UHGV virus genome: UHGV-2035542
Length of the DNA stretch: 40,870 nucleotides
From: a virus
Direction: 5' to 3' (one strand)
Positions within the stretch are counted from its first letter, which is position 1; the number at the start of each line of letters is the position of its first letter. Below the pieces are notes generated by a model, which did not search any database, had not been told where the DNA came from, and was given only the letters and a program-made list of their open reading frames with translations. The position numbers and the translations under genes are program-made. Of the stretch, positions 7,991-18,516 are shown one piece after another.

Positions 7991-8401
7991 TTAGTGATTC
8001 AGGCCGTTACCGCGTCCGTCGAGAAAAACTTCCACGAGCAAATCACGGGTATAAGTGCGCTCGATGCCGCGATGCAGATAAAGCCGTCCGCGTAAATTAG
8101 CTGATGCAGTCCAGGTACCATCTTTGTGTTTGACCAGCATTCCTGGCATGACCGCGCCGCGATTAACGGTCTGCGTTCCGTAATGTTGATGAACCATAAA
8201 AACTCCTGCCCGTAAGCTGGGCTGCTGAACATATAGAGACTTCTGCGCGTATTCAGGCGGTGGATGGCCGCCGGTTGTCATAACTAAGCCGCCTCGTTGA
8301 AGCGACTGAGGTATAAAGTGTTGTGTTGATTTCAGCTGGTCACACCGACGTTCACGCGTCCGCTTCACCCCTCGCACTCCCCGGAGCCTGCTGAAATTCA
8401 A
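7991..8401 (-). CDS. hypothetical protein in the slot lambda uses for kil/cIII/N; start uncertain (alternative ATG at 8281)
   Basis: 136-aa ORF with an Arg-rich N-terminal stretch (RLRGVRGVKRTRERR); no family recognised. Confidence 0.3.
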   Translation of the reverse strand: MNFSRLRGVRGVKRTRERRCDQLKSTQHFIPQSLQRGGLVMTTGGHPPPEYAQKSLYVQQPSLRAGVFMVHQHYGTQTVNRGAVMPGMLVKHKDGTWTASANLRGRLYLHRGIERTYTRDLLVEVFLDGRGNGLNH

Positions 8402-8466
8402 GCTGCGGATCTAAGCGGTCATCGCAACGGTGAATCAGGTGGTTGCCGTATCGTTGTGTTGTTGCG

Positions 8467-8520
8467 ATATGGTGATAATAGCTATTGCTATTGGTGATAT
8501 CAATACTTATTGCTATTGGC
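8467..8520. promoter_or_regulatory. putative leftward operator/promoter region (oL/pL equivalent)
   Basis: Two tandem ~25-bp repeats (TGGTGATA...ATTGCTATTGG) plus the palindrome AATAGCTATT; the same ATTGCTATT(G) motif recurs between cI and cro. Confidence 0.4.
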
Positions 8521-8644
8521 TGATGTGTTTTGATATTAAATGTTTGATAGCAAAAAGAATTAATTTTGTGACTTGCATCGCATAGCGATAACTGAAGCAG
8601 TAGTGTGGTGGTTTTTTGAGCGGTGTGTGATGAGGGGAGGGGAC

Positions 8645-8671
8645 AAAAGAAAACCCGGCACGGTGGCCGGG
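8645..8671 (-). terminator. intrinsic terminator closing the cI/kinase-like/DUF3037-like operon
   Basis: Minus strand: CCCGGC-CACCGT-GCCGGG hairpin followed by TTTTCTTTT, just downstream of the 8698 stop. Confidence 0.6.
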
Positions 8672-8697
8672 TTATTAATTAAATTAGTCAGTTTTTT

Positions 8698-9504
8698 CTA
8701 CTGTAACATAGAGGCAGCATTCAGCATCTTTTCGTAATATGAACGCATGTCTTCTTTGCTATATGCGTTGATAAGATTATCAGCGTGTTTTTCCAGTAGA
8801 TTTAGCTGCTGTTTTGCTGACTTTTCTTGTGCTGTCGTTTCAGCGGCAAAAATTACAAATGAATCAATATTTGAATTGTATAATTCGTAGGCTTTAGTAA
8901 TTGTTAAAACACTTATCGCAGCTTCACCCATTTGTTTTTTTATATTTTCAGAACGAAAATCTAATGTTTCTGTAAGATGGTATTTGCCATTTTTTAACAA
9001 AAAATCTGCAACTAACCCTTCTTCATTACTAATTGGATAATTAGCTACGATTTTATGTTGGGAAAGATCTTCAAAATACTTACTGAAAATTCCATGTTGT
9101 ATAAAGGTGGATTTTAATTCAGAAAAAACCTTTTTTTTCAACTGCTTATGTGGTTGTTTTTGTGGGTTTACTAACCGATTCATTAGATCAGTAACTTTAG
9201 CTTCGTAATCTTCGTTGGCTTGAAGAGTGAACATGCCAAATGACGATAACGATAATGCTCCCTTAAAAAGACAAGGAAGAAGTTCAGCATTGTTGATTTT
9301 TTGTGACAAATCAAAAAGCGAGGTTGAAAGATCCTCTAAGTAATCTAAGGTAAGATCTTTGTCAATCGCTTTAAGTTTTGAAACTGAATTGAGCATACGT
9401 ACGTCTATGTCAGAGTCATGGTAAACGATCAAACCAACGTTAATCGTTTCACCTTTCTCTAAGTTCGGTGTAACTCTGATTAAGCTGTATTTGAAAGTTT
9501 TCAA
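8698..9504 (-). CDS. DUF3037-like protein (268 aa), TTG start coupled to the upstream gene
   Basis: TTGA start/stop overlap with the kinase-like gene; GGAG about 10 nt upstream; N-terminus KYSLIRVTPNLEKGETINVGLIV resembles DUF3037-type proteins (from memory); visibly AT-rich. Confidence 0.6.
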   Translation of the reverse strand: MKTFKYSLIRVTPNLEKGETINVGLIVYHDSDIDVRMLNSVSKLKAIDKDLTLDYLEDLSTSLFDLSQKINNAELLPCLFKGALSLSSFGMFTLQANEDYEAKVTDLMNRLVNPQKQPHKQLKKKVFSELKSTFIQHGIFSKYFEDLSQHKIVANYPISNEEGLVADFLLKNGKYHLTETLDFRSENIKKQMGEAAISVLTITKAYELYNSNIDSFVIFAAETTAQEKSAKQQLNLLEKHADNLINAYSKEDMRSYYEKMLNAASMLQ

Positions 9505-10349
9505 GATGTTATCTCCAGTCTTATGGCATTTAGCCTATCGATTCGCTCCTCGCTATCCCACCACTTCAAAAAATACTCCTTATGCATTGGTGGCATCCAT
9601 GCTTCAGGCATAGAGTTAAGTATATCAGATATAGTCTCAACTCCAATTTTTTCAATTTTGTCAAGGACAGATAATGCGCACTTTCTCAGATCATCAGTGT
9701 CGCCAATGAATTGTTTAGCAATCGTCCAGTTTGTTGTTGTACTGGAGTCTGTTGGTAGTATATGAGGGGTATTTCGTGGCCAGCCTATAACAAAAGAGTT
9801 TAGACTAAAATCGAATGTTTTAACTATAACATTGCCTCGGGTGTTTTCCATGTATAAGTAGTTGTTGAGGTGTCTGTCAATGTTATATACAAACTGATCA
9901 AATGCATAAATTGCCCAGAGTTGCTTCTTTAAGGATTCAGAAGCATTTGAGAGCAAATTTATCCATTGAGGACTATTGAGACCAGATTTCCAGGCTGAAA
10001 ACTCTATGCGAGAGCCAAAAACATACTCCCCATTAGCAATACACTTGAGAATTTTGCACACAGGTGTAGCGATGCCGCATTTTTCAGCTAAATTTGTGCA
10101 AAACCATTCCGCTGCCGGTACTTGAGTTGGGTTTTGTACAGGAAAAGGTGGGGTGGAACGCATGCTTTTAACTGCATATTCCATTTCATCAGTGGCAATA
10201 GCGAAACCAGAAAGGTGTGCAGTGCCTAAGCTTGAAGGTGTATATTCATGAAATTCTAATTCAAACAAACTTCCTTGCTCTGGTTTCACTTCATCAGTGT
10301 TTGGCTCTTGTTCTTTCGTCATCAACTTTTTTCCCCAAATCGAAGACAT
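9501..10349 (-). CDS. protein-kinase-like fold protein (HipA/PI3-4-kinase-like catalytic signature), 282 aa
   Basis: AAGAGG RBS; YAVK (K61), catalytic-loop-like NIDRHLNN (D158-R159-H160...N163) and DFS (D180) about 20 residues downstream; 46 nt after the cI stop on the same strand. Confidence 0.65.
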   Translation of the reverse strand: MSSIWGKKLMTKEQEPNTDEVKPEQGSLFELEFHEYTPSSLGTAHLSGFAIATDEMEYAVKSMRSTPPFPVQNPTQVPAAEWFCTNLAEKCGIATPVCKILKCIANGEYVFGSRIEFSAWKSGLNSPQWINLLSNASESLKKQLWAIYAFDQFVYNIDRHLNNYLYMENTRGNVIVKTFDFSLNSFVIGWPRNTPHILPTDSSTTTNWTIAKQFIGDTDDLRKCALSVLDKIEKIGVETISDILNSMPEAWMPPMHKEYFLKWWDSEERIDRLNAIRLEITS

Positions 10350-10395
10350 GCGGACCTCTTAAATTTGAACAACATCATAATGATTAGCTAATCCG

Positions 10396-11124
10396 CTACC
10401 CATGCTTCCTATACGTCTGCGGCATGCTCCCAATAACCTTACCGAAGATGAACACCCGGTTCATCTCGTCTTTCTCGATCGGGTCCCACGGTGAGTAGCT
10501 CTTGTTATCAGAGATAACCAGCAGCTTATCCTTCATCATTTGCAGACGCTTTACATGGGCTGTGTCGTCGTACAGAAACGCATAGATACCATCACCGTCG
10601 AAAGATTTAACCGTGATATCAACGAACAGCAGATCACCTGGTTCGATCGTTCCTGACATGCTGTCACCACGCACGTTAATGATGCGGATATTTTCCGCCT
10701 TCCTGCCATCGAACATGTGACGAGCATCGTCAAACGAGTACTCAACCGAGCGTAGAACTTCTACAAACTCACGGTTGATTACACCCGGCCCGGCACTGAC
10801 TTCTATATCAAGAACGTCAATTTTGAAGTATTTGGAATGGCTGACAGCAGGCTTCCCTGATTGTTGACCGTCATTTCTCATCGGGCCTATGCCTGATGAG
10901 AGCCATTCTGTTCGAACACCCAATGCATTAGCTATTTCAACAATTTTTGTTGAGCCGCGCGCGTTGCCGCTTGTCAGTCTCCAGATTGTGGGTTGAGCTA
11001 CGCCAGACGCCTTTGCAAGAGCGCCTTGAGACATTCCAGATTGTTCCATCGCTAGGTTTAAGCGATCAGCAAGAGTTTCTTTTTTCATAAGTTTTAATTT
11101 ATACGCTTGCGTATTGATGGTCAA
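10396..11124 (-). CDS. cI: CI-like repressor (XRE-type HTH + S24 LexA-like peptidase domain); alternative start at 11088 (MKKETLADRL)
   Basis: HTH (MSQGALAKASGVAQPTIWRL) and S24 motifs (VRGDSMSGTIEPGDLL ... VKRL); divergent from cro. Confidence 0.85.
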   Translation of the reverse strand: MTINTQAYKLKLMKKETLADRLNLAMEQSGMSQGALAKASGVAQPTIWRLTSGNARGSTKIVEIANALGVRTEWLSSGIGPMRNDGQQSGKPAVSHSKYFKIDVLDIEVSAGPGVINREFVEVLRSVEYSFDDARHMFDGRKAENIRIINVRGDSMSGTIEPGDLLFVDITVKSFDGDGIYAFLYDDTAHVKRLQMMKDKLLVISDNKSYSPWDPIEKDEMNRVFIFGKVIGSMPQTYRKHG

Positions 11125-11192
11125 AACACGTTTTGCTATTGCTTGGGTTAATACGCATTGCTATTATTCATTCATTGCAATACCAATAGGAA
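11125..11192. promoter_or_regulatory. putative oR/pR-pRM region between cI and cro
   Basis: Repeated ATTGCTATT(G/A) motifs and inverted CCAATAGG; palindrome ATACGCTTGCGTAT at 11101..11114. Confidence 0.45.
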
Positions 11193-17991: not shown

Positions 17992-18516
17992 TTATTGTTT
18001 AACCCATAATAATTCATTGACATTGAATCCCAACTTTTGAGCGGTTCGCACATAGTCTGCTTTTACTTTATCTGGAATAGTTGGGGTCCTTGCCAGAATC
18101 CATAGGTATTCTCTGTTCGGACCACTGACAAGAGCATACTTATACTCATCATCCAGTTTGATTACATTATAGCCACCATAGAAGGGGCCAAAAAACGAAA
18201 CCTTCAACGCTGCAGTTTTAGTATCTCCAGTAAAGTATGCTTTACCTTCGCTCTCGCTCCATTTATTTTTCGTTGGATCGTATCCACGGTTAAGTACACG
18301 AATCCCTCCGTCGTTCCGTTTTCCATAAGTAGCGCTGACCTGTTCCAGACCACGTTCGAACCGGTTCTCGAGGCGAGCTATTTCATACCATTTTCCGAGG
18401 TAGCGGTTGGCGTCAAAATTTGTAATCGGCTGCACACCTTTAGGTGGTGTCGGGGCCTTACATGCTATAAGAGTGAAAGAGAGTGCAATGCCAGTCAACA
18501 CAGGCCATAACTTCAT
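17992..18516 (-). CDS. bacterial lipocalin (Blc-like) outer-membrane lipoprotein
   Basis: Lipoprotein signal with LIAC lipobox; NFDANRYLGKWYEIARLENRFERG...FFGPFYGGYNVI matches Blc from memory. Confidence 0.85.
   Translation of the reverse strand: MKLWPVLTGIALSFTLIACKAPTPPKGVQPITNFDANRYLGKWYEIARLENRFERGLEQVSATYGKRNDGGIRVLNRGYDPTKNKWSESEGKAYFTGDTKTAALKVSFFGPFYGGYNVIKLDDEYKYALVSGPNREYLWILARTPTIPDKVKADYVRTAQKLGFNVNELLWVKQ

Follow-up and report, generated by a model that had tools for sequence, protein, structure and literature searches.

A probable HipAD-type kinase-DUF3037 defense module in the repressor operon of a lambdoid prophage

We analyzed the UHGV virus genome UHGV-2035542, a stretch of 40,870 nucleotides (nt) that we refer to as the window. 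It looks like an intact lambdoid prophage of an Escherichia coli host, with P22-like late genes. Behind its cI-type repressor gene lie two overlapping open reading frames (ORFs): ORF A, which is predicted to encode a HipA-family kinase, and ORF B, which encodes a DUF3037 protein. We suggest that this cassette is probably a HipAD-type toxin-antitoxin (TA) defense module, carried in the repressor operon, that aborts superinfecting phage. An initial annotation, made from the sequence alone, had proposed a lysogen-expressed, kinase-based exclusion or abortive-infection module at this place. Its observation was confirmed and its interpretation is supported; the kind of system and the slot had already been published. 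Pairs of a HipA-like kinase and a DUF3037 protein were recognized as anti-phage only in 2025-2026. The window adds a second, very divergent lineage in the same repressor-operon slot, which has kept the catalytic residues and whose partner protein has a C-terminal domain with no detectable sequence relationship to HipD.

ORF A (9501..10349, minus strand) encodes 282 amino acids (aa). It starts at ATG 10349..10347, which is 46 nt past the cI stop codon (10398..10396), and the ribosome-binding site (RBS) AAGAGG lies at 10360..10355 with a 5-nt spacer. RefSeq begins the protein at M10 (273 aa) and labels it "hypothetical protein." We favor the start at M1, because homologues conserve the N terminus MSxxWG and because the RBS is strong. 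In Pfam, ORF A narrowly passed the HipA_2 model (PF20613), at 28.2 bits (cutoff, 27), and it stayed below the cutoff of the HipA_C model (24.4 versus 30.5). Most of its homologues have precomputed matches to PF20613 and PF07804. The predicted catalytic residues are found in the motifs YAVK (K61, codon 10169..10167), NIDRHLNN (D158, 9878..9876; R159; H160, 9872..9870; N163, 9863..9861; together codons 9878..9861), and FDFS (D180, 9812..9810), all read on the minus strand. Across 34 aligned homologues, with identities as low as 31%, K61, D158, R159, H160, N163, and D180 do not vary; the set of Lys, D-R-H-x-x-N, and Asp that the initial annotation had picked out is both present and conserved.

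The AlphaFold2 (AF2) model of ORF A had a predicted local distance difference test (pLDDT) score of 84.4 and a predicted template modeling (pTM) score of 0.83, with residues 1 to 26 disordered. When we compared this model with the Protein Data Bank (PDB) by Foldseek, the best matches were CtkA (1e-7), HipT (1.6e-6), and HipA (1.6e-6), followed by type II PI4-kinases (PI4KII) and CotH. In a weak profile alignment to Legionella HipT, D158, H160, and N163 fall in the catalytic loop NEDMHLKN of that protein, and D180 falls in its YDL motif. When solved structures were searched by sequence, ORF A gave sub-threshold matches to HipT only. The model and the Pfam match agree with the kinase-like fold proposed at first, and ORF A is predicted to be a kinase with a HipA/PI3-4-kinase-type fold and a D-x-H-x-x-N catalytic loop. 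Two database proteins, P0306 (541 aa) and P0022 (326 aa), appeared to join a kinase to a DUF3037 partner, an arrangement that would have favored a direct interaction; we set them aside, as they look like frameshift artifacts with an out-of-frame-looking middle or tail. In P0022, D158 is replaced by Cys (NIDCH); the loss of the catalytic Asp suggests a pseudogene.

ORF B (8698..9504, minus strand) encodes 268 aa. Its TTG start codon (9504..9502) overlaps the TGA stop codon of ORF A (9503..9501) within the sequence TTGA, and GGAG lies 8 nt upstream. The coordinates of both ORFs, both ribosome-binding motifs, the 46-nt gap, and the overlap are all in the sequence as first annotated. The protein has a DUF3037 domain (residues 1-112), a disordered linker (116-123), and a PD-(D/E)xK-like domain (125-268). 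It passed the Pfam DUF3037 model with 38 bits, covering only half of the model, and its DUF3037-like character, first suspected from its N terminus, thus holds. The C-terminal domain has a restriction-endonuclease-like (PD-(D/E)xK) fold, in which H150, H176, E179, and D182 are invariant, D/E167 is conserved, and K171 is near-invariant. The canonical (D/E)xK lysine is missing in the family, where position 181 is I, L, or V. To judge from the alignment, H150, H176, and K171 could substitute for the canonical PD-(D/E)xK catalytic residues.

A Pfam search of 29 members of the partner family found no family covering the C-terminal domain and no nuclease family. DUF1829 was not found by HMMER in the ORF B family or in the HipD family, and a search of solved structures by sequence gave only noise for ORF B. 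In the BFVD, the ORF B model aligned over 263 columns with the viral "DUF1828 domain-containing protein" A0A8S5NHZ2 and over the full length with two unnamed viral proteins (E = 2.5e-11 and 2.6e-10). The DUF1828 match hints that the ORF B and HipD types of partner may share an overall fold, and two-domain proteins of the DUF1828/DUF1829 type may be structural relatives of the DUF3037 partners.

Both ORFs matched phage protein families (E = 1e-66 and 5e-73) and have dozens of conserved homologues. The observation of two genuine ORFs is therefore far beyond chance. PHROGs labels both families "unknown function" (that of ORF A is phrog_3162), and these labels, like those of RefSeq, could be improved.

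HipAD of Escherichia phage PhiR5_1 is reportedly the subject of work by Brenes and Laub from 2025. The anti-phage system DS-6, renamed HipAD, consists of a HipA-like kinase and a DUF3037 protein (DeWeirdt, Mahoney & Laub 2026). According to a row in the supplement of that study, DS-6 yields about 3.9-log fewer plaques of phage Bas1, and the kinase mutant D139A loses defense. AlphaFold3 in the same study predicted that DS-6A and DS-6B form a complex, which also binds DNA, and the authors described a DUF1829-like C-terminal region in DS-6B with an HHpred probability of 78%. We took the DS-6 sequences from the supplement of the study. DS-6A is 100% identical to the PhiR5_1 gene annotated "HipA toxin," which is followed by the "HipD antitoxin" gene. 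The accessions of the window's proteins were not found in the text of the DefensePredictor supplement.

The window pair shares its architecture with HipAD. Both are two-gene operons in which the gene for a short HipA-like kinase overlaps the next gene, whose product has some 270 aa and a DUF3037 domain at its N terminus. Both occupy the same slot of a lambdoid phage, which directly follows cI and precedes Kil-Gam-Bet-Exo. By hhalign, the ORF A profile matched DS-6A with 96.4% probability (E = 1e-9, 112 columns), and D158 aligned with D139, the residue whose mutation abolishes DS-6 defense; the two kinases have catalytic-loop residues in common. ORF B matched the HipD family with 95.9% probability over 134 columns, which comprise the DUF3037 domain and the linker. 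However, the two families are far apart. Homology of ORF B to HipD, with its DUF3037 and DUF1829-like C-terminal domains, was found for the N-terminal domain and not over the full length. The match list of the HipD family has no entry in common with that of the ORF B family, and HipD scored 85 bits with the DUF3037 model compared with the 38 bits, over half of the model, of ORF B. On this evidence, the window pair appears to be a very divergent lineage with the architecture and position of HipAD, homologous to HipA and HipD only at the profile level. If the C-terminal fold of HipD proved to be the same as that of ORF B, the window lineage would reduce to a member of HipAD. Comparison of the two lineages would help to separate the essentials (kinase core and DUF3037) from the specificity determinant (C-terminal domain).

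A second pair of the same architecture lies beside Retron-Sda1. It is a standalone defense system, with an effect of about 0.9 log10 against phage Bas51. Deletion of its kinase gene abolishes defense, and deletion of its DUF3037 gene is toxic. The window cassette resembles this pair in its domain pairing, and the Sda1 operon has the order HTH (helix-turn-helix) gene, HipA gene, DUF3037 gene. The published D139A mutant, taken with the alignment of D139 and D158, and the Sda1 data support a defense role for the architecture, and by analogy for this divergent lineage. The literature points to DUF3037 proteins as antitoxins, beyond the part of sensor or regulator that the initial annotation had given ORF B. 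The pairing of a HipA-like kinase with DUF3037 also corresponds to the PADLOC candidate system PDC-M66. The PDC-M66 models matched DS-6A and DS-6B at 6e-15 and 4e-16, and PDC-M66B matched ORF B at 2.6e-8 over residues 1-190 only. ORF A matched PDC-M03A (7.6e-7) better than PDC-M66A. The PADLOC preprint mentions neither PDC-M66 nor PDC-M03.

The two genes lie in an exchangeable slot. Homology between the window and phages PhiR30_1, 4A7, PhiR5_1, and PhiR47_2 ends at 8671..8679, within a terminator, and resumes at 10396..10397, at the cI stop codon. These breaks define a cassette of about 1.72 kb (8680..10395, minus strand) with conserved flanks on both sides. The GC content over 8600..10400 is 30-41%, compared with 50-54% on either side; the AT-rich character seen at first is real, and it marks the cassette as acquired cargo. 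In four related phages (loci L007-L010), both flanks are 83-99% identical and the slot holds four different two-gene cassettes. PhiR5_1 carries HipA/HipD in the gene order cI-HipA-HipD-Kil-Gam-Bet-Exo, and PhiR47_2 carries GevT/GevA, which are annotated as toxin and antitoxin. Phage 4A7, whose cI is 96.6% identical to that of the window, has a 353-aa hypothetical protein and an ASCH-domain protein. PhiR30_1, whose cI is 99% identical, has two hypothetical genes of 310 and 141 aa (978-2332 of locus L008), which may be another candidate defense or TA cassette. A site with such sharp boundaries is a practical place to seek further prophage defense genes, for example in the PhiR30_1 slot.

Of 5,426 complete E. 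coli genomes, 24 carried the full cassette at ≥99% identity, in every case chromosomally and beside a repressor gene. About 70 nt at the terminator matched at 80-95% identity in roughly 950 of these genomes. Among 50,697 deposited phage genomes, the cassette was not found at the DNA level, and only the approximately 70 nt at the terminator end matched; a tblastn search of the same genomes with the window kinase detected no relative.

Both genes sit in the immunity region, between the left operator (OL) and the repressor gene, in the same orientation as cI. The first gene of the operon is the cI-type repressor gene (10396..11124, minus strand; Pfam Peptidase_S24, 1.5e-18, and HTH_3, 1.5e-6). 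Its product is 96-99% identical to the cI of phages PhiR30_1, PhiR68_2, 4A7, and others. A consensus scan found a PRM-like promoter, TTGACC-17-TAAATT, at 11096..11124 (minus strand), which may drive cI and, by read-through, the cassette. An OR-like operator cluster (11117..11165) and an OL-like cluster beyond the terminator (8469..8517, repeat D1) share a 49-nt direct repeat that is 71% identical, and the scan placed a promoter-like site at the OL-like cluster (8503..8475, minus strand). The 46-nt spacer between cI and the kinase gene (10350..10395, minus strand), which contains the AAGAGG RBS, showed neither a terminator nor a promoter-like site when scanned. After ORF B, an intrinsic terminator (8652..8673, minus strand) closes the operon and forms the downstream boundary of the cassette; it has an 8-bp stem with 6 GC pairs and a T-run. 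The operon slot between OL and cI is thus as first described. The stem-loop is also there, although our scan places it at 8673..8652 (minus strand), followed by TTCTTTTG, and not at 8645..8671.

The PRM-like promoter ends about 8 nt ahead of ATG 11088, which is the cI start in RefSeq, where the gene is 693 nt long. This short distance points to a cI mRNA that lacks a leader, as in lambda, and suggests that the 242-aa ORF with the TTG start is too long. The start of cI is probably ATG 11088 rather than TTG 11124.

The pairing of the two genes is nearly universal in the family. When the partner was used for an exhaustive profile search, 778 representative clusters matched at E ≤ 1e-3, of which 210 reached E ≤ 1e-30. 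Because nearly all of the matches run end to end at about 270 aa, the two-domain layout of the partner is widespread, and at least 210 clusters (50% identity) have it in full. Our survey of related loci covered 71 of them (62 on viral contigs and 9 in genomes), whose partners range from 28% to 100% identity; many of these loci are near-identical, so the counts describe a range of contexts and not independent events. A full-length HipA_2-type kinase gene lies directly upstream of the partner gene on the same strand in 69 of the 71 loci, and the two genes are -13 to +15 nt apart. In 58 loci, a co-oriented repressor gene is found no more than 500 nt upstream (45 of the S24 cI type and 13 of the short HTH CI type). 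Members of the family typically sit immediately behind phage repressor genes. Outside the repressor slot, the pair adjoins recBD on the chromosome of a Gallaecimonas, and in a Vibrio prophage it follows the replication genes. The pair of kinase and partner is thus a self-contained unit. The pairing is broken in two IMG/VR loci: in L065 the partner has no detectable upstream kinase, and in L071 the kinase ORF is truncated, with about 49 aligned residues. These two loci may be decayed copies or orphan antitoxins.

We propose the following mechanism. In the lysogen, the transcripts that make cI would read through the 46-nt spacer, so that kinase and partner are expressed, and the operon would end at the terminator. 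The overlapping TTGA would couple translation of the partner to that of the kinase. The partner would keep the kinase inactive, probably by direct binding, and a superinfecting phage would release or activate it. The kinase could then phosphorylate an essential host target, which by analogy with HipA and HipT may be a translation factor such as an aminoacyl-tRNA synthetase. Growth would halt, the infection would abort, and the lysogen population would be protected. In this scenario, the assignment of toxin and antitoxin and the anti-phage phenotype follow by analogy from DS-6 and the Sda1 pair, and the trigger and the kinase substrate are both putative.

Several points weigh against the HipAD-type reading. 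The Pfam HipA_2 score of ORF A lies only just above its cutoff. PDC-M66A barely detected ORF A, at 1.6e-3 over 41 residues. By BLASTP, the similarity to HipAD was near noise, with E = 0.009 for the kinase (at the catalytic loop) and E = 0.004 for the partner (over the first 22 residues), and hhalign gave the C-terminal domains of ORF B and HipD a probability of 0.5%. The proposed co-transcription with cI is argued from the absence of detectable signals in the spacer. Finally, a TA pair that is driven by the repressor promoter raises the question of what becomes of the kinase at prophage induction, when transcription from this promoter stops. If the antitoxin is unstable, silencing the promoter should let the kinase act against lytic growth of the prophage itself.

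Other readings share part of this evidence. The pair might be a plain addiction module that stabilizes the prophage or the cassette by post-segregational killing and has no significant anti-phage role. Its TA-like layout with overlapping genes would suit such a module, as would the toxicity of the DUF3037 deletion in the Sda1 system and the movement of the pair as a unit between contexts, including the non-prophage chromosomal site beside recBD. However, in DS-6 and in the Sda1 pair, protection against phage depends on the kinase. In 58 of the 71 loci the pair comes directly after a repressor gene, its slot also holds other named toxin/antitoxin (defense) cassettes, and an integrated prophage hardly needs segregational stabilization. 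We consider pure addiction unlikely. It is also improbable, in our view, that the kinase instead tunes the prophage's own life cycle by phosphorylating a phage or host factor that acts in lysogeny maintenance or induction, and we give this reading the least credence. The place next to cI in the immunity operon in those same 58 loci would fit it, and so would an expression that seems tied to lysogeny. However, phages with 96-99% identical cI carry unrelated cassettes, so that immunity system does not need the cargo; the pair is also found away from any repressor gene, and its low GC content identifies it as acquired.

The fold of ORF B raises the question of which protein is the effector. With its PD-(D/E)xK-like fold and its invariant residues, the C-terminal domain might be a nuclease effector or a nucleic-acid sensor that the kinase regulates by phosphorylation, so that the kinase would not be the sole toxin and the roles would be reversed or shared. 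Such an exchange of roles seems to us unlikely: position 181 is I, L, or V instead of the canonical lysine, no nuclease Pfam family was found in any of the 29 members, and in the Sda1 pair the DUF3037 deletion is toxic rather than detoxifying and the kinase deletion abolishes defense. We regard a related idea as doubtful but worth stating. The PD-(D/E)xK-like domain, through its invariant His/Glu/Asp cluster, could sense or cut incoming phage nucleic acid and thereby release the kinase, which would make the pair a functionally distinct system. ORF B would then act as a switch that senses DNA and controls a HipA-type toxin, and the system would need a built-in way to spare its own prophage at induction.

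The HipAD-type module that we favor can also be compared with more distant systems. ORF A shares with the kinases of HipBA and HipBST the kinase fold and the catalytic motif, D-x-H-x-x-N with a downstream Asp. With its short length of 282 aa, it resembles HipT and CtkA in having no counterpart of the N-terminal subdomain found in the 440-aa HipA. The pair does not belong to classical HipBA: we found no HipB-like gene, the gene upstream encodes an S24 cI-type repressor, and ORF A has no match to the HipA N-terminal domain in Pfam. Lambda carries rexAB between OL and cI. RexAB consists of a sensor and a membrane protein, and Stk of phage 933W, a eukaryote-like tyrosine kinase, stands alone without a partner. 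Stk is activated by HK97 infection. The window cassette resembles both in its genomic logic, as cargo that is co-oriented with cI, placed between cI and OL, and closed by a terminator, and it would likewise act in the lysogen against other phages. Among the Pfam matches of either ORF at E ≤ 1, there was no Rex or Pkinase family, and the likeness to RexAB is one of position only.

The remainder of the window is that of a lambdoid prophage. Genes for an integrase, Kil, Cro, a cII-like protein, an O-like replication protein, the large terminase, portal, coat, and tailspike were identified. The prophage is integrated at a tRNA gene adjoining proA, and the tRNA at the attachment site was the sole Rfam match over the whole window. 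No N-like antiterminator ORF was found between the OL/PL-like (left operator and promoter) region and kil (8198-8468). These roughly 270 nt ahead of kil are noncoding, except where kil is extended upstream in frame (7991..8401), and they have no Rfam match. Antitermination in the window may differ, for example by use of an RNA element. Two further ORFs are in positions typical of prophage cargo: a reverse-oriented ORF of 174 aa (17992-18516, minus strand) within the late-regulatory region and, following the tailspike gene, an ORF (39746-40870, plus strand) that runs off the end of the window.

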